Assembly (NCBI GenBank): GCA_038208905.1
Contig: JBBQYG010000025.1
Location: 1 to 34,333 of the forward strand
DNA: 34,333 bases
Reading direction: 5' to 3'
Source: Candidatus Sumerlaeia bacterium
GTDB taxonomy: Bacteria > Sumerlaeota > Sumerlaeia > SLMS01
Shown: positions 10,047-16,928 of the stretch, in pieces
Numbering within the stretch: position 1 is the first letter of the stretch
Layout of the letters: every line of letters starts with the position of its first letter
The notes under the pieces: generated by a model
What the model saw: only the letters and a program-made list of their open reading frames with translations
What the model was told of the DNA's origin: nothing
Databases searched by the model: none
Position numbers and translations under genes: made by a program

Positions 10047-10180
10047 GGCGGAGACGGCGGGCAAGGCGGGAAAAACGGGAACCGCGGGAAAGGCGGAAAA
10101 AACAGGGAGAGGCAGGGGAAAACAGGGAACAGCAGGATGAATGTCCTGCCCTTCCCTGCTTCTCCCTGCCGTTCCCCGCC
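10047..10180. repeat. Composite 9-bp plus 10-bp tandem array ending in an inverted-array hairpin, directly after the carB stop
   Basis: Six 9-mers (GGCGGAGAC GGCGGGCAA GGCGGGAAA AACGGGAAC CGCGGGAAA GGCGGAAAA), then 10-mers AACAGGGAGA GGCAGGGGAA AACAGGGAAC AGCAGGA, short loop, then TCCTGCC CTTCCCTGCT TCTCCCTGCC GTTCCCCGCC. Confidence 0.85.
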
Positions 10181-13100
10181 TACTTGTACTCGTCCCAGCC
10201 CTTGATCAGCAGGTCCTCGACGTTGATGCGGGAGATGGCCTCGATGAAGCGCATGGCGATCTGGCGGTTGGTGATGAGGGGGACGTTGAAGTCCACCGAT
10301 GCGCGGCGGATCAGGTAGTCGTTGGTGAGCTCCTCCTCCTGGAAGTTCTTGGGGAGGTTGATCACCAGGTCCACCTTGCGCTCGCGGATCAGGTCCACCA
10401 CGTTGGGGGATGTTTTTTCCAGCGGCCAGTTGTGCTCGTCGCAGTGGATGCCGTGCTCGCGCAGGAAGGCGGCGGTGCCGTGGGTGGCGTGGATGGCAAT
10501 GCCCATGGCGTCGAGCAGGCGGGCGCTCTCCAGCAGTTCCAGCTTGGACTGTAGCACGCCGGAGGAGATCAGGATGCTCTTGATCGGCAGGCGATAGCCC
10601 ACGCAGATGAGCGCCTTCAGGAACGCCTCGTCGAAGTCCTCGCCCAGGCAGGCGACCTCGCCCGTGGAGGCCATCTCGACGCCGACCGTGGGGTCGGCGC
10701 CCTCGAGGCGGGTGAAGGAGAACTGCGGCGCCTTCACGCCGACATAGTCGATGTCATAGAAGTCGTTGTCGATCTTGGGAATCGCGCGCCCCACCACCAC
10801 GCGGGTGGCGATGTCGATGAAGTTCTGGCGCATGATCTTGGAGACGAAGGGGAAGCTGCGCGAGGCGCGCAGGTTGCATTCGATCACCTTGACCGAGTTG
10901 TTCTTGGCGATGAACTGGATGTTGAAGGGGCCGTGGATCTTGAGGCCGCGGGCGATCTTCTCGCTGATGCGGCGGATCTGGCGTATCGTCTCCAGATAGG
11001 TGCGCTGTGGCGGCAACACCAGCGTGGCGTCGCCAGAGTGAACGCCCGCGTTCTCCACGTGCTCGCTGATCGCGTGGATCACGATCTCGCCGTCGCGGGC
11101 GACGCCGTCGAACTCGATCTCCTTGGCGTTTTCCAGGAACTTGCTCATCACCACGGGGTGAACGGGGGAGACATCCGCCGCGCGCTGGAGGAAGCGGGTC
11201 AGCTCCTCCTCCGTGGTCGCAACGGCCATGGCGGCGCCGCTGAGGACGTAGGATGGCCGCACGAGGACGGGGAAGCCGACCTTGCGCGCAAAGACCAGGG
11301 CCTCCTCCACGGTGCTCAGAAGGCGCCACTCCGGCTGATCGATCTTCAACTCGTCCAACATGCTGCTGAACTTGCGGCGGTCCTCGGCCTTGTCGATATT
11401 GGCGGGCGCCGTGCCCAGGATCTTGAGCCCCGCTGCGGCCAGCTTCATCGCCAGGTTGTTGGGGACTTGACCGCCGACGGAGACGACAATGCCGAGGGGG
11501 TTGATCTTCTCGTAAACCTCGATGACCGTCTCCAGATTGATCTCGTCAAAGAACAGCTTGTCCGACTCGTCGTAGTCCGTGCTCACGGTCTCGGGATTGT
11601 AGTTGAGCATCACGGTGCTGAATCCGAGCTGACGCAGCGTCCGCGCGGTGTTGACACAGCACCAGTCGAACTCCACCGAGCTGCCGATGCGGTAGGTGCC
11701 CGAGCCGAGCACGAGGACGGAGTTGATCTCCGGGAACGCGATGTCGTCCTGCTGGGCGTGGTAGGAAAGATAGAGGTAGTTGGTCTGCGCCGGGTACTCG
11801 GCGCCGAGCGTGTCGATCTGGCGGACGTAGGGATGAACGCCCAGCGCGCGGCGATGGGCGCGGACCTCGTCCTGCGTTCCGTTGGTGAGGATGGCGATCT
11901 GCTCGTCGGAGAATCCCGCCCGCTTCGCGTCGAGCAGCAGCGGCTTTTGGATCTCGCCAATGCGGAGCTTGGTAATCGCCTGGCGTATCTCCACCACGGC
12001 GGCGATTTTGTGCAGGAACCACTCGTCGATGTGGGAGAGTTCGTGGATGCGATCCACGGTCATGCCCGCCTTCAGCGCCTCCACCACGGCGAAGATGCGC
12101 TCGTCGGTGGGCTGGCGGAGTTCCAGCTCCACATCCTCGAAGCTCCACGCCGTGTTGCCGACAAGGCCCTTGGCGCCGATCTCCAACATGCGGAGCGCCT
12201 TTTGCAGCGCCTCCTCGAAACTGCGCCCGATGGCCATGACCTCGCCGACGGACTTCATCGAGGAACCAATCTGGCGGCGGACCTTGTGGAATTTCTTCAG
12301 GTCCCAGCGCGGGATCTTCACCACGCAGTAGTCCAGCGACGGCTCATAGAAGGCCTTGGTCACGCCGGTCACGGCGTTGGCGAGCTCGTGGAGGCCGTAG
12401 CCCAGCGCCAGCTTCGTCGCGATGAAGGCGAGCGGATAGCCCGTGGCCTTGGACGCAAGCGCGGAACTGCGCGAGAGGCGCGCGTTCACCTCGATGATGC
12501 GGTATTGTTCCGAGACGGGATCAAGCGCGTACTGGATGTTGCACTCTCCGACGATGCCGAGGTGGCGGATCACGCGGATCGCGATCTCGCGCAGCATGTG
12601 GTATTCGCGGTTGCTCAGCGTCTGGCTCGGCGCGACCACGATGGACTCGCCGGTGTGGATGCCCAGCGGGTCGAAGTTCTCCATATTGCAGACGGTGATG
12701 CAGTTGTCGAAGCGGTCGCGGACGACCTCGTACTCGACTTCCTTCCAGCCGGTGAGGTACTCCTCGACGAGGACCTGCGTGGTGAAGGTGAGCGCCTTCT
12801 CTGCCCTGGCGCGAAGGGCCTCCTCGTCGGCGCATAGCCCCGACCCCAGCCCGCCGAGCGCATAGGCGATTCGCATCATCACCGGATAGCCGATTTCGCG
12901 CGCGATGCGCAGGGCGTCTTCCACCGTGCCGGCGGCCTGGCTGCGCGGGGCGAGGGCGTTGACCTCGTTGAGCCTCTTCACGAAAAGGTCGCGGTCCTCC
13001 GTCTCGCGAATCGCGCGGACGGGCGTGCCGAGCACGCGGACGTTGTACTTGGCGAGCACGCCGGTCTCGTCCAGCGCGAGGCCGCAGTTCAGGGCCGTCT

Positions 13101-13371
13101 GGCCCCCGAAGCTCAGCAGCAACCCATCGGGCCGCTCCTTCGCGATGATCTTCTCCACGAAGTACGGCGTCACCGGCAGGAAATAGATGCGGTCCGCCAG
13201 ATGCTCGCTCGTCTGGATGGTGGCGATGTTGGGATTGATGAGGACAACGTGGATGCCCTCCTCCTTGAGCGCCTTGATGGCCTGGCTGCCGGAGTAGTCG
13301 AACTCGCCGGCCTCGCCGATCTTGAGGGCGGAGCTGCCGAGGATGACGACTTTATTGATCGATTCGGTCAT
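10180..13371 (-). CDS. carB: Carbamoyl-phosphate synthase large subunit
   Basis: IGEAGEFDYSGSQA, two ATP-grasp halves (EVNARLSRSSALASKATGYPLA; ECNLRASRSFPF), C-terminal MGS domain; 1063 aa. Confidence 0.97.
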   Translation of the reverse strand: MTESINKVVILGSSALKIGEAGEFDYSGSQAIKALKEEGIHVVLINPNIATIQTSEHLADRIYFLPVTPYFVEKIIAKERPDGLLLSFGGQTALNCGLALDETGVLAKYNVRVLGTPVRAIRETEDRDLFVKRLNEVNALAPRSQAAGTVEDALRIAREIGYPVMMRIAYALGGLGSGLCADEEALRARAEKALTFTTQVLVEEYLTGWKEVEYEVVRDRFDNCITVCNMENFDPLGIHTGESIVVAPSQTLSNREYHMLREIAIRVIRHLGIVGECNIQYALDPVSEQYRIIEVNARLSRSSALASKATGYPLAFIATKLALGYGLHELANAVTGVTKAFYEPSLDYCVVKIPRWDLKKFHKVRRQIGSSMKSVGEVMAIGRSFEEALQKALRMLEIGAKGLVGNTAWSFEDVELELRQPTDERIFAVVEALKAGMTVDRIHELSHIDEWFLHKIAAVVEIRQAITKLRIGEIQKPLLLDAKRAGFSDEQIAILTNGTQDEVRAHRRALGVHPYVRQIDTLGAEYPAQTNYLYLSYHAQQDDIAFPEINSVLVLGSGTYRIGSSVEFDWCCVNTARTLRQLGFSTVMLNYNPETVSTDYDESDKLFFDEINLETVIEVYEKINPLGIVVSVGGQVPNNLAMKLAAAGLKILGTAPANIDKAEDRRKFSSMLDELKIDQPEWRLLSTVEEALVFARKVGFPVLVRPSYVLSGAAMAVATTEEELTRFLQRAADVSPVHPVVMSKFLENAKEIEFDGVARDGEIVIHAISEHVENAGVHSGDATLVLPPQRTYLETIRQIRRISEKIARGLKIHGPFNIQFIAKNNSVKVIECNLRASRSFPFVSKIMRQNFIDIATRVVVGRAIPKIDNDFYDIDYVGVKAPQFSFTRLEGADPTVGVEMASTGEVACLGEDFDEAFLKALICVGYRLPIKSILISSGVLQSKLELLESARLLDAMGIAIHATHGTAAFLREHGIHCDEHNWPLEKTSPNVVDLIRERKVDLVINLPKNFQEEELTNDYLIRRASVDFNVPLITNRQIAMRFIEAISRINVEDLLIKGWDEYK

Positions 13372-13387
13372 GGGTTGCCTCTAACGA

Positions 13388-13415
13388 GCCGCGGATTGCG
13401 CGGATATCGCGGATT
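13388..13415. repeat. 9-bp tandem array (NCGCGGATN x3), downstream arm of the GxxExxY gene
   Basis: G CCGCGGATT GCGCGGATA TCGCGGATT; inverted relative to 13822-13840 and 13898-13914. Confidence 0.85.
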
Positions 13416-13418
13416 TGG

Positions 13419-13811
13419 TCAGCGTGGGGGTAGTCGCTTGCGGGAATTCTCGAGGACTATTCTCTTTAACTCTGGCTTGGGCCCCAAATTTAGGATCAGC
13501 CCGACCTCGCAGTAAGTCGCCCTCAGATATCCCATCACTTGGGCCTCGTGATCCGGAATTATGGCACGGCAAGCCTTCAGTTCTAGGATTACAAGGTCCG
13601 CCGCGACGAGGTCGAGAAACTGCTCCCCGATGCAATGCCCCCGAAAGTAAACGGGCGCGGGCACCTCGCGGGCGGCCGCCAGTCCGGCGTCTTGAAGGGC
13701 GATCAGCATGGCTCGGTGATAGTGGATTTCCCGGAAACCATGTCCCAGCTCGTTGTAAGTCTCATAAAAGACCCCGATGATCTTCTCGGTAAGCTCTTCA
13801 TGCAGCAGCAT
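13419..13811 (-). CDS. GxxExxY protein (predicted PD-(D/E)xK nuclease fold)
   Basis: MLLHEELTEKIIG...ELGHGFREIHY (G-F-R-E-I-H-Y motif), DLVAADLVILELKA, HEAQVMGYL, GLILNLG; lies between carA and carB. Start ATG 13811 (alternative TTG 13823). Confidence 0.9.
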   Translation of the reverse strand: MLLHEELTEKIIGVFYETYNELGHGFREIHYHRAMLIALQDAGLAAAREVPAPVYFRGHCIGEQFLDLVAADLVILELKACRAIIPDHEAQVMGYLRATYCEVGLILNLGPKPELKRIVLENSRKRLPPR

Positions 13812-13821
13812 GGTCGTTTCC

Positions 13822-13914
13822 AATCCGCGTCATCCGCGGCCCCACTTTTTTTGTCGCCTGATCTGCGACCCAACCTTCCGTCAACACCCGCTTCCAGTCC
13901 GCGTCATCCGCGGC
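13822..13914. repeat. Two copies of the 9-bp array forming the upstream arm(s) of the GxxExxY gene
   Basis: TCCGCGTCATCCGCGGC is present exactly at 13824-13840 and 13898-13914; reverse complement GCCGCGGATGACGCGGA matches the downstream arm. Confidence 0.85.
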
Positions 13915-13934
13915 GCTGTGTGTTTCCCCGCGGC

Positions 13935-15059
13935 TCAGCCCTTCTTCACCATGTCCACAAACTCGTCAAACAGGTACTCCGTGTCCACCGGACCCGGGGC
14001 CGCCTCGGGGTGAAACTGGCAGCTGCGGATGGGGAGGCTGGTGTGGCGGATGCCCTCGTTGGTGCCGTCGTTGAGGTTGGTGAACCAGATTTTCCAGCCC
14101 TCGGGAAGGCTGTCGGGATTCACGGCGTAGCCGTGGTTCTGGGAGGTGATGTAGCAGCGGCGCGTGTCTTCCTCGATCACCGGCTGGTTCTGGCTGCGGT
14201 GGCCGTACTTGAGCTTGTAGGTGTCGGCGCCGATCGCCAGCGACAGGAGCTGGTGGCCGAGGCAGATTCCGAAGACGGGCACGTTGCGCGTCAGCAGGCG
14301 GCGGATTTGGTGCACGGTTGCCTTACACATCTTGGGATCGCCGGGGCCGTTGGTCAGCATCACGCCGTCGAATTTTTCGGCGGAGAGATCGTGATCCCAC
14401 GGCACGCGCAGCACCTCGACGCCGCGCGTTGTCAGGCTCTCGATGATGTTGTTCTTTCCGCCGCAATCCACCACGACGATGCGCTTGGCGCCGGTGCCGT
14501 ACTTGATCGGCGCGGCGACGCTGACGAGGGGCATCAGGTTGACGGAGTTCGGATCGTAGTCCTTGGCCGGCTGGCCCTCGAACTCGATGCGGCCCAGCAT
14601 CGTGCCGCTCTCGCGCAGGCGCATCGTCAGCGCGCGGGTGTCCACGCCGGTGATGGCGGGGATCTTCTGCTCCTTCAGCCAGTCGCCCAGCGATTTTGCC
14701 GCGTCCCAGTGGCTGTAGCGCGCGGAGTAGTCGCTCACCACCAGGCCCTGAATCTGGATCCTGCCCGACTCAAAGGGCAGGCCCAGCGGGCACCCCTCGC
14801 GGACGCGCGGCACACCGTAGTTCCCGACCATCGGGTAGGTGAGGACCAGGATCTGTCCCGCATAGGAGGGATCGGTCAGCGTCTCGGGATAGCCGACCAT
14901 GCCGGTGTTGAAGACGACCTCTCCGGCGATGGAGCCCTCGTGGCCAAAGCTGCGTCCCGTGACCGACGATCCATCGGCGAGCAGGAGTCGGGCCTCGCCT
15001 TGCAACGGCTTCCCCGGGTTCTGCTGTCCTACGGGGGCCGTGGCGGTGCCTGATGCCAT
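13935..15059 (-). CDS. carA: Carbamoyl-phosphate synthase small subunit
   Basis: GEVVFNTGMVGYPETLTDPSYAGQ, NGPGDP, GICLGHQ (catalytic Cys), QFHPE; AAGGAG before ATG 15059. Confidence 0.96.
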   Translation of the reverse strand: MASGTATAPVGQQNPGKPLQGEARLLLADGSSVTGRSFGHEGSIAGEVVFNTGMVGYPETLTDPSYAGQILVLTYPMVGNYGVPRVREGCPLGLPFESGRIQIQGLVVSDYSARYSHWDAAKSLGDWLKEQKIPAITGVDTRALTMRLRESGTMLGRIEFEGQPAKDYDPNSVNLMPLVSVAAPIKYGTGAKRIVVVDCGGKNNIIESLTTRGVEVLRVPWDHDLSAEKFDGVMLTNGPGDPKMCKATVHQIRRLLTRNVPVFGICLGHQLLSLAIGADTYKLKYGHRSQNQPVIEEDTRRCYITSQNHGYAVNPDSLPEGWKIWFTNLNDGTNEGIRHTSLPIRSCQFHPEAAPGPVDTEYLFDEFVDMVKKG

Positions 15060-15237
15060 GAGGGAAACTCCTTCTCGGGGGTGCCGGGTGCTTGTTTTGG
15101 GAAGAACCAAAAATTTCTCGGAACCTACCCAAAACTGCGGAGATAAGGGGCACGCGCCCCCCCGGGGTCAAGGTCGCAGGGGCCGCGCCACCGTCTTTTT
15201 TCGCCGGAATATGCCGCCAAGCAAGAACGAAGGTTGC

Positions 15238-15449
15238 CAGGGAGAACACCGAGCGCACGGAGATTCGGCTCAGCCGTTTGACCAGAACCCCACTATTGTG
15301 CCCACAAGCCAGCAACGAGAGCTTTGACCTTACTGACCGGAGGGACCGAATTGACTGCGTCTGCGGTCCCCATCGCCGGAATCTGGGTTGGGGGCACACT
15401 ATGCCATTCTCTCGTGTTGTTTTCCGCGCCCTCGGTGTCCTCCGTGGTT
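15238..15449. repeat. Inverted pair of 9-bp arrays enclosing about 160 bp
   Basis: Left CAGGGAGAA CACCGAGCG CACGGAGAT (15238-15264); right TCCGCGCCC TCGGTGTCC TCCGTGGTT (15423-15449), whose reverse complement reads CACGGAGGA CACCGAGGG CGCGGA. Confidence 0.65.
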
Positions 15450-15503
15450 CCCGCTTTTTTTCTACCGTTGCCCGTCAGCGCGCTGTCACGCTTGGCTCTC
15501 CGC

Positions 15504-16244
15504 ATGATCGCCTCCGCCTTGGAGAAACTTCTCTCCCACGACCTCCTCTTCGTCACCGGCACCGACACCGGCGTGGGCAAGACGGTGCTTACCACCGCGA
15601 TCGCGACCCACTGGAAACGCGGCGGTCACGAGGTCTGCGCCGTGAAGCCCGTCGCTGCCGGCGATGGAGCGATTCGCGGCGGCCATTGGGTGTGCGATGA
15701 CTCCCGGGCGAGCGGCGCGGCGTGTACCCCGGCGGGGGCCGCGTTGCTGGAGAGCATCCTGGGCGTCGCCCACGACTCACCCATGATCGGGCTCAGCCAG
15801 CCGATCGCGCCGTGGTCCGCCGCCGAGCTGGATCAGCGCGTCATCGATGTTGCCGGAATGAAGCGCGATCTGCGCCGCCTTGCGCGGGCCGCCCGACGCA
15901 GCAATATCAGGCTCATCATCGAGGGCGCTGGCGGCATCCTCGTCCCCCTCGGCCCCCGCCATACCATGGCCGACCTCGCCAGGTCGCTCCGCGCGCCCGT
16001 CGTCGTCATTGCGCGCAGCGCCCTCGGCACCATCAACCACACGCTGCTGACGCTGGAGGCGCTGGACCACCGGGGCATCCCGGTCGCCGGAGTGATCCTG
16101 AATCGCATGCGGGGCGGATGCCTCTCCGCCGCCGAGTCCGCCGGAGTGCGCGAGCTGTCGATCCTCGTGCCGCGCGCCACGCCGCTGCTGATCGCGGGAA
16201 GGGCGGGGCGGGGCGGGGTGGGGATGGTGGATGCGCGGGGGTAG
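15504..16244 (+). CDS. bioD: Dethiobiotin synthase
   Basis: LFVTGTDTGVGKT, KPVAAG, IAPWSAA, IIEGAGGILVP, LGTINHTLLT. Confidence 0.92.
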   Translation: MIASALEKLLSHDLLFVTGTDTGVGKTVLTTAIATHWKRGGHEVCAVKPVAAGDGAIRGGHWVCDDSRASGAACTPAGAALLESILGVAHDSPMIGLSQPIAPWSAAELDQRVIDVAGMKRDLRRLARAARRSNIRLIIEGAGGILVPLGPRHTMADLARSLRAPVVVIARSALGTINHTLLTLEALDHRGIPVAGVILNRMRGGCLSAAESAGVRELSILVPRATPLLIAGRAGRGGVGMVDARG

Positions 16245-16323
16245 GGGCCGCAGCGCGATTTTCGCTTTTCAGGAGCCCAAGGCTCTGCGCACCATGTTCT
16301 TAGGAATTGCCAAGGAGCACAGA

Positions 16324-16563
16324 ATGGACTGGCGCCCTCACATTTCGCAGGATCCAGCGGTTCTCAGGGGAAAGCCCTGTATCAAGGGGACCCGCATCTC
16401 CGTTGAGCTCATCGTTGAGGACATGGCCGATGGGGCCACCATCGATGTGATTCTTTCCTCGTATCCCTTCCTCGCGAGAGATCAAGTGCGGGCGGCATTG
16501 GCCTACGCGGCTGCCTCGCTTTCGAGCGAGCTGATGATCAACGCCGAAACAGCCAATTCTTGA
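16324..16563 (+). CDS. DUF433 protein (putative antitoxin)
   Basis: ISQDPAVLRGKPCIKGTRISVELI...YPFLARDQVRAALAYAA; AAGGAG upstream; overlaps the PIN gene (TTGA). Confidence 0.9.
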   Translation: MDWRPHISQDPAVLRGKPCIKGTRISVELIVEDMADGATIDVILSSYPFLARDQVRAALAYAAASLSSELMINAETANS

Positions 16564-16928
16564 AGTTCCTCATCGATGCAAATGTCGAGCAGGCAATGAT
16601 CGCGTGGCTCGAGGCTGAAGGTCACGACCTACTGATTGCCAACCGCATCGAGCTAGGCGCGCCGGACGATGCACTTCTGCGCCTCGCTATTGAACACGGG
16701 CGCATCATTGTGACGCGTGACAAGGACTTCGGCGATTTGGTCTTCCGAGACTTGCACGGCGCGTCTGGAATCGTGCTCATAAGAATCTCCACCGTGTCTG
16801 GCAACCCTTTGGAGCGCCTAGGCATCCTCAAGCAAAGCTGGCCAGTCATCGCCGAGCACGCCATGGGCAACCTCGTCTTGGTCACCCGCGACCGAATCAG
16901 GATCAGGCCACTCTCACGTCGAGCTTAA
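16560..16928 (+). CDS. DUF5615/VapC45-like PIN-domain protein (putative toxin)
   Basis: MKFLIDANV, GAPDDALL, RIIVTRDKDFGDLVF, GIVLIR, RIRIRPL. Confidence 0.88.
   Translation: MKFLIDANVEQAMIAWLEAEGHDLLIANRIELGAPDDALLRLAIEHGRIIVTRDKDFGDLVFRDLHGASGIVLIRISTVSGNPLERLGILKQSWPVIAEHAMGNLVLVTRDRIRIRPLSRRA

Follow-up and report, generated by a model that had tools for sequence, protein, structure and literature searches.

The window analysed here is a 34,333-nt contig of a Candidatus Sumerlaeia bacterium, in which the minus strand codes alike for carA, carB and a small third gene that separates them. The upstream host gene, carA, occupies 13935..15110 (an open reading frame matching TIGR01368 at E 1.5e-135) and the downstream host gene, carB, occupies 10180..13371 (TIGR01369). 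Between them, as the first-pass annotation had proposed, lies a GxxExxY gene (13419..13811), which encodes 130 amino acids when read from an ATG (a TTG at 13823 is an alternative start) and belongs to the GxxExxY/PDDEXK_3 family, with matches to TIGR04256 (E 8.5e-31; 106.7 bits, cut-off 35) and PF13366 (E 2.6e-32; 112.1 bits, cut-off 22). Its codons are indeed less GC-biased than those of its neighbours, with a GC3 of 0.67 compared with 0.87 for carA and 0.92 for carB.

The gene is bounded by arrays of a short repeat, referred to here as arms, all annotated on the minus strand. The right arm (13386..13415) consists of three CGCGGAT units at 13390, 13399 and 13408, with a 9-bp period; the array begins 4 nt past the GxxExxY stop codon, and its last unit ends 18 nt ahead of the carB start. 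Inverted with respect to it are a proximal left arm of two CGCGGAT units (13822..13840) and a distal left arm of two heptamer units, the second degenerate (13896..13914). These contain two identical 17-bp blocks (13824-13840 and 13898-13914), spaced by 74 nt and forming part of a 26-nt repeat of 92% identity. The three units after the stop, the two opposed upstream blocks and a 16/19 match between the arms had all been reported in the first reading and were recovered at the same positions; the mismatches of that match fall in the 2-nt linker and at the final base. The 9-mer of the first reading did not hold up as the repeat word, as the conserved word is a 7-mer and the 2-nt linkers vary, and the list of arms given there, otherwise correct, missed a partial third copy over the carA stop codon. 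This outermost copy (13928..13936) forms a perfect 9-bp outer inverted pair with 13386-13394, which gives a cassette unit of about 550 bp, whose outer end overlaps the carA stop.

PF13366 is the only domain detected in the cassette by profile search, with no DDE, serine or tyrosine recombinase domain, and the locus contains no cas genes and no intron. No sigma-70-like promoter was found in 13300-15600, where terminators were not in excess either, and expression of the cassette would thus be borrowed from transcription of the host operon. Further upstream, between the carA upstream region and a bioD-like gene, a gene-less arm of G-ending heptamers followed by a T-tract (15417-15461) shares 82% identity with arms on contig C133, and a DUF433 and DUF5615/PIN-like gene pair at 16231-16928 is likely a toxin-antitoxin module.

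The carA-carB junction in relatives and strains

Ten genomes of the same family were compared, and the carA orthologue locus was obtained from eight of them. In six, carA runs directly into carB (35-136 nt); in another (L007) the junction is filled by a nucleotidyltransferase and HepT-like gene pair, and in the last there is no carB within 1.5 kb, so that the GxxExxY gene is absent from all eight. These empty junctions support the suggestion, made in the first reading, that the arms mark the ends of a mobile element that lacks a transposase and lies between co-transcribed genes. Only one of 29 related carA loci (L032) carries a GxxExxY gene, which was missed by tblastn with the window protein and recovered by profile search; it belongs to a same-class genome, and its distant protein and CACGAAG arm mark it as an independent insertion between carA and carB. 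The carA-carB locus is one insertion, present here and absent from relatives. The empty junction of L009 (genome G001) opens with a single CGCGGAT directly after the carA stop, which may be an arm remnant or a chance occurrence.

This genome holds three GxxExxY loci, namely carA-carB, atpA-atpG (with CACGGAG arms) and a pseudogene (G000:C21:9760-10500; L003/L004), which is interrupted by an in-frame TAG and by about 150 nt of inserted sequence but retains its inverted arms. For atpA-atpG, 13 loci from 24 relatives were re-read in frame, eight from the same family and five from the same order. The junction is empty (-1 to 47 nt) in all eight same-family loci, and the five same-order loci comprise one PF05635 gene, one similar-looking ORF, one set of repeats without a gene (L216) and two empty junctions. 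The PF05635 (23S IVS/bAvd-like) gene has 7-bp-period inverted arms of its own (L215:2294-2659 and L208). PF05635 genes with arms at mRNA junctions may form a parallel cassette class that uses the same sites. The sole PF05635 gene of this genome (L218; G000:C172:1245-1532) has inverted purine/pyrimidine repeat tracts on both sides.

Strain variants were read from contigs of four DNA runs of other samples, at low depths of 3-8. In run X2, a third 9-bp unit is inserted behind 13905 in the distal left arm, which produces the three-unit form found at a gene-less arm pair elsewhere in the genome (C60:11039-11194) and a better match to the right arm; in runs X3 and X4, a third 9-bp unit is inserted behind 13822 in the proximal left arm. 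One X2 contig repeats back 74 nt (13818-13891), which could reflect a third copy of the upstream 74-nt block or an assembly artefact. None of the four runs contained a junction bridging the site without the cassette, and neither an empty nor a joined allele was found in them; their contigs show presence, not absence.

Five of the six coding SNPs in the GxxExxY gene change a residue (including L78P within E-L-K), compared with none of seven in carA and carB together (Fisher p 0.005; p 0.015 with one low-depth row dropped on each side), the count excluding non-coding rows and rows 12634-12710, which derive from high-depth foreign contigs. The protein also departs from near-invariant residues, for example with Leu 109 where 158 of 160 family rows have Phe, and its nearest non-self relatives share at most about 62% identity. 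The window copy is likely decaying or drifting under relaxed selection.

Inverted arms across the GxxExxY family

Taken by itself, the arm signal at carA-carB is modest, with an inverted score of 12 that is equalled or exceeded by 3 of 1000 dinucleotide shuffles. Of 41 related genomes, 36 contain PF13366, at one to eight matches each and with several copies carrying stops. About 90 of the 107 matches listed were retrieved, giving 99 profile hits, of which 87 had a near-full gene and 150-nt flanks and were kept (one locus is entered twice, as L032/L078). An inverted score of at least 14 was reached by 51 of these 87 loci compared with 22 in the direct orientation, and by 10 of 685 cross-paired controls, none of 435 shuffled controls and none of 500 long ORFs of this genome. 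Among the nearest GTDB relatives, 80 loci were collected and 73 kept, and 54 of the 73 reached the same score. Inverted periodic flanks are thus enriched at other GxxExxY loci, and neither of the two outcomes named in the first-pass annotation as fatal to its reading, conservation of the gene at this junction without arms or a lack of such enrichment, has occurred.

Across family loci the arms follow the word C-R-C-x-R-A-K at a period of 8-10 bp, usually in a layout of three units on each side (48 of 72 simple pairs), and different GxxExxY clades within one genome have different arms. Arms are not universal, since a score of 11 is reached by only 56 of the 87 loci and 34 lack a tandem arm under a strict pattern; some loci have instead a hairpin on each side, with the gene not enclosed. 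Where both neighbours could be called (49 of 71 loci, with crude ORF calling), the cassette has the orientation of both in 47 cases. The median distance from the preceding stop codon to its left end is about 6 nt, and its right end is most commonly 12 nt before a start, a closeness due in part to the shortness of operon spacers. Both the family-wide inverted arms and the co-oriented neighbours agree with the mobile-element reading of the termini.

The genome contains 42 arms of at least three units, mostly without a gene, compared with 0-1 in three block-shuffled genomes, and these form 20 inward pairings. The 15 gene-less pairs examined all lie outside crudely called genes; their spacers are unique rather than uniform MITE copies, and no GxxExxY remnant was detectable within them (best E about 4). 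A gene-less pair at C60:11039-11194 has the same CGCGGAT type as the carA-carB cassette. Gene-less pairs could be non-autonomous or decayed copies of the cassette. One gene-less spacer (G000:C208:1641-1942) holds a second, unrelated repeat that recurs on dozens of contigs and belongs to a REP-like family of this genome.

These counts bear on an alternative in which the gene is an ordinary one, acquired horizontally, and the repeats beside it are chance products of GC-rich sequence. The arms here are indeed short and GC-rich and score just 12 locally, but the rarity of that score in local shuffles, the empty control set of 500 ORFs, the same arm recurring without a gene on C60 and the unit-precise indels in three other samples all speak against chance, which the family-wide arm counts, the counts in GTDB relatives and the 42 arms of this genome refute; we regard it as scarcely credible.

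The encoded protein and its candidate sites

In the window protein, the signature motif corresponds to G25-x-x-E28-x-x-Y31. An AlphaFold model built from 47 sequences (pLDDT 90) has its best structural matches among restriction-endonuclease-like proteins, Cas4 and Hjc, all of which are PD-(D/E)xK proteins; the top VIA Z values are 8.2 (3ijm; BpuSI nuclease domain) and 8.0 (Cas4 SSO0001), with an rmsd of 3.4-3.7 over 96-100 aligned residues, which are middling values that indicate the fold only. Foldseek returned no match at E 0.001 or better, and no PDB entry matched by sequence. E28, D67, E77, K79, Q91 and Y95 are all present and are conserved in 153-160 of 160 rows (D67 in 160, E77 in 154 and K79 in 153), and the D-ExK and QxxxY residues among them are presumably catalytic, as in the rest of the superfamily. 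The window protein is thus a predicted PD-(D/E)xK nuclease, sharing fold and D-ExK and QxxxY residues with Cas4, Hjc and restriction-endonuclease-like nucleases and differing from them in its identity of at most 22% to any structure and in the lack of cas genes or an intron at its locus. Homing endonucleases of the PD-(D/E)xK type also exist as a comparison class. A search with PADLOC 2.0 assigned the window protein to no family at E 0.01 and to no defence model; weak Cas4 hits (E 0.004-0.008) were obtained in two relatives. PF13366 is described as a family of unknown function with multiple transfers in the available part of PMC3424549.

Evidence on what reads the arms comes from comparing them with the proteins that they flank. 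An arm consensus was derived for 112 of 160 loci (111 after removal of a duplicate), and the 111 proteins were placed on a FastTree tree with many unresolved forks. The arm word follows this tree across several phyla and does not follow the host; heptamer position 7 (T or G), for example, requires one change on the tree compared with at least 23 in shuffles, although the hosts span several phyla. Residue 8 covaries with base 5, in that all 78 proteins with Thr go with G and all 18 A-type arms go with a non-Thr residue; when 300 traits were simulated on the tree, a single one attained this maximum mutual information over all columns. For base 2 the covarying residue is 121 (0 of 300 simulated traits), with a weaker association at residue 119 (9 of 300). 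In independent-pair sign tests, the median p was 0.03-0.06 for residues 8 and 119 and a non-significant 0.5 for residue 121. The window protein has T8 and E121, in agreement with CGCGGAT. This covariation is suggestive, and the GxxExxY protein likely contacts the heptamers directly.

Whether such contact would be made with DNA or RNA bears on a further proposal of the first reading, that the arms pair in mRNA and loop the gene out in the manner of an intervening sequence (IVS). RNase III or the encoded protein would then cut the loop from the carAB transcript, rendering the insertion harmless. Thermodynamically this is possible, with a predicted duplex of about -33 kcal/mol at carA-carB, about 17 expected end-to-end pairs joining the 5' elements to the 3' arm, and 13928-13936 predicted to be paired with the 3' arm at 8.98 of 9 positions. 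The co-orientation in 47 of 49 loci, the positions of the ends, near a stop on one side and some 12 nt ahead of the following start on the other, the RNase III domain encoded in the genome and the armed gene for a PF05635 (23S IVS) protein at atpA-atpG in a same-order genome are all in keeping with it, and 23S IVSs are cut by RNase III according to the accessible text of PMC4990558.

The family as a whole provides no matching signature. In the coding strand, G·U mismatches between arms are no more frequent than A·C mismatches, at 17 against 19 in heptamers and 25 against 26 in linkers, and neither strand is favoured by duplex energy, the coding strand being better in 38 of 72 loci and the other in 34; this lack of strand bias favours symmetrical DNA sites over an RNA stem. 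Within a locus, the two arms are 97% identical in their heptamers (1321/1365 bases) and only 59% identical in their linkers (166/280), although in-register linker matches (39/123 vs a shuffle mean of 15.5) are also consistent with pairing. The whole-region fold at the carA-carB cassette has a z of -1.77, local hairpins formed by the arms singly do not outperform those of shuffles (z -0.45 to -0.74), and a comparison with Rfam up to E 1 gave no match to the cassette. Furthermore, cutting does not rejoin a cut mRNA, the gene is not enclosed at every locus, and the residue-base covariation points to sequence read-out. The arms fit better as candidate double-stranded DNA binding sites, and excision at the RNA level is, in our estimation, distinctly unlikely.

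As far as PMC4990558 could be consulted, ORF-bearing 23S rRNA IVSs (S23p/PF05635) resemble the cassette in their size of about 430-550 nt, single small ORF, complementary ends around that ORF and co-transcription with the host, and PF05635 cassettes also occur at atpA-atpG. They differ in that the cassette lies outside rRNA and its cargo has a nuclease fold in place of a four-helix bundle, with periodic ends and mismatched linkers in place of a near-perfect 28-bp stem. With its location at carA-carB, a PF13366 cargo and no Rfam match, the cassette is not a 23S rRNA IVS; of the traits of an IVS stem, predicted pairing and an RNase III domain in the genome were found and an RNA-strand signature was not.

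The arms could instead be a REP- or MITE-type repeat moved in trans by another enzyme, such as a Y1/RAYT protein, with the GxxExxY gene as cargo. Two Y1_Tnp matches are present in the genome, and its gene-less inverted pairs with unique spacers are REPIN-like. Against this stand the dependence of the arm word on the GxxExxY tree rather than on the host, the distinct arms of distinct clades within one genome, the different repeat that flanks the Y1 gene on contig C12 and, again, the residue-base covariation, which together leave trans mobilisation very unlikely. REPtrons, TIRtrons and REPINs remain instructive, since in the portions seen of PMC3733652, PMC6006769 and PMC5581495 they likewise consist of an enzyme gene inside its own inverted repeats, with gene-less repeat pairs scattered in intergenic DNA, mostly vertical inheritance and rarity on plasmids; dispersal of the flanking repeat between genes is seen here in the 42 three-unit arms. 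From those same portions, the enzyme of REPtrons is HUH-Y1 (RAYT/TIRYT) rather than PD-(D/E)xK and their repeats are GTAG/CGTC-tagged palindromes rather than tandem heptamer arrays, and the cassettes further differ in having several clades per genome and a strong preference for intra-operon junctions. G·T pairing is reported for REP stems in the part of PMC3733652 consulted, whereas the cassette arms have no such stem bias. There is no HUH-Y1 gene between the arms, and the Y1_Tnp matches of this genome lie on other contigs, so that the cassette is not a REPtron or TIRtron.

Movement, residence and comparison with mobile elements

Two loci of a single genome, L075 and L081, are 95.7% identical over 468 nt in unrelated flanks, and their homology breaks off where the right arm ends and, on the other side, about 17 nt beyond the left arm, which lends further support to the arms as element termini. 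A second close pair at different sites is L144/L160, and 153 GxxExxY loci occupy 100 upstream contexts. That the cassette exists as a unit and moves as a whole, occasionally, is well supported.

Most of its history is nevertheless residence, which the first reading had not foreseen. Of 42 close pairs (at least 80% protein identity), 40 share both neighbours, with dN/dS of about 0.01-0.14, a sign of purifying selection in the family, and two lie elsewhere; mobility is low, and the pattern is nearer that of a resident gene than of an insertion sequence (IS). The ispD-ispF junction is common to 29 loci, nearly all from Acidobacteriota, which have about three units per arm and in which both arms switch word together (CACGGAT, CGCGGAT, CACTGAT and CGCTGAT), indicating that the arms are kept long after insertion or that the site is re-invaded. 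The pyrB-pyrC junction is occupied by two distant GxxExxY clades. Target-site duplications were not in excess at 72 loci, those of 4, 5, 6 and 8 nt being present in 6, 3, 0 and 0 loci compared with shuffled means of 15.6, 5.3, 1.4 and 0.1, and may have been eroded in old insertions.

Insertion sequences and MITEs, and Tn7- or Mu-type ends, where tandem sites are bound by the transposase, resemble the cassette in their terminal inverted arrays of binding-site-like words and in copies with sharp ends at unrelated sites. The cassette differs in its very low mobility and lack of DDE, Ser or Tyr recombinase domains and target-site duplications; with no transposase domain in cis, no target-site duplication and gene-less spacers that are unique, it is not a classical IS or MITE.

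Long residence is also what would be expected of a domesticated nuclease that is useful to the host in defence, repair or as a toxin, with arms acting as operator or neutralising sites and relocation being incidental. In addition to the syntenic, constrained pairs and the ispD-ispF loci with both arms, this reading draws on the presence of the family in most related genomes, on the NTase-HepT pair at carA-carB in one relative and on a RAYT-like distribution (as far as PMC5581495 describes it): plasmids rarely carry the gene, with 6 matches in 72,556 records, and no relative was matched in a phage collection or in viral contigs with these queries. The latter result is not proof of absence, since a GxxExxY gene is listed for an algal virus in the available part of PMC12085832. 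A domesticated nuclease does not readily explain the roughly 100 different sites with patchy presence at each, the one to eight copies per genome (several with stops), the dozens of gene-less arms, an inverted array after the stop that is superfluous for an operator, the lack of a PADLOC match for the window protein beyond weak Cas4 hits in two relatives, or the drift of the window copy, and we consider it unlikely.

The reading that we favour, with a probability of roughly 0.55, is that of a slow mobile cassette whose predicted PD-(D/E)xK nuclease reads its own ends. The cassette of about 550 bp would have inserted once between carA and carB; acting on double-stranded DNA, the GxxExxY nuclease would bind the tandem heptamers of the two arms and cut at the cassette ends, and host repair would complete a rare copy into another stop-to-RBS operon junction. 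Movement would be slow and most copies would be long-term residents, as with RAYTs. Several results weigh against this slow, self-reading cassette: no cleavage, excision or insertion was observed, nor an empty or joined allele in the four DNA runs; only two of the 42 close pairs lie at different sites, and the syntenic 40 behave as a resident gene would rather than as an IS; about a third of family loci fall short of a score of 11 and 34 of 87 lack a strict tandem arm; the independent-pair tests are marginal and the FastTree forks open; gene-less spacers are unique; and the in-register linker excess also fits pairing. We also know of no strand-transfer chemistry for a lone 130-aa nuclease.

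A broader claim, to which we give somewhat less than even odds, is that GxxExxY cassettes constitute a distinct class of prokaryotic mobile element, in which one 130-aa PD-(D/E)xK nuclease would drive mobilisation and recognise the terminal heptamers by a simple code that matches residue 8 to base 5 and residues 119/121 to base 2. The elements would insert, with no target duplication, at stop-to-RBS sites in housekeeping operons and seed gene-less pairs. If the nuclease alone drives movement, it would add an enzyme class to those known among mobile elements (DDE, HUH, Ser/Tyr and Cas1), account for an abundant family of intergenic repeats and provide a DNA binder or nuclease that is both sequence-specific and very small. 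For PF13366, which is very common and of unknown function, the arms supply a specific candidate substrate, together with a recognition code that can be tested. The literature found, in which subscription journals are largely uncovered, contains no description of a gene-plus-arms cassette class, and mentions of 'GxxExxY' are passing only in the parts seen, so that GxxExxY cassettes are a widespread and apparently undescribed class. The window copy is one further, probably decaying member, and intact members are found, for example, at ispD-ispF. Among database homologues (P0002-P0120), many annotated N- or C-terminal extensions look like translated arms, and database start sites for the family may often be misplaced.
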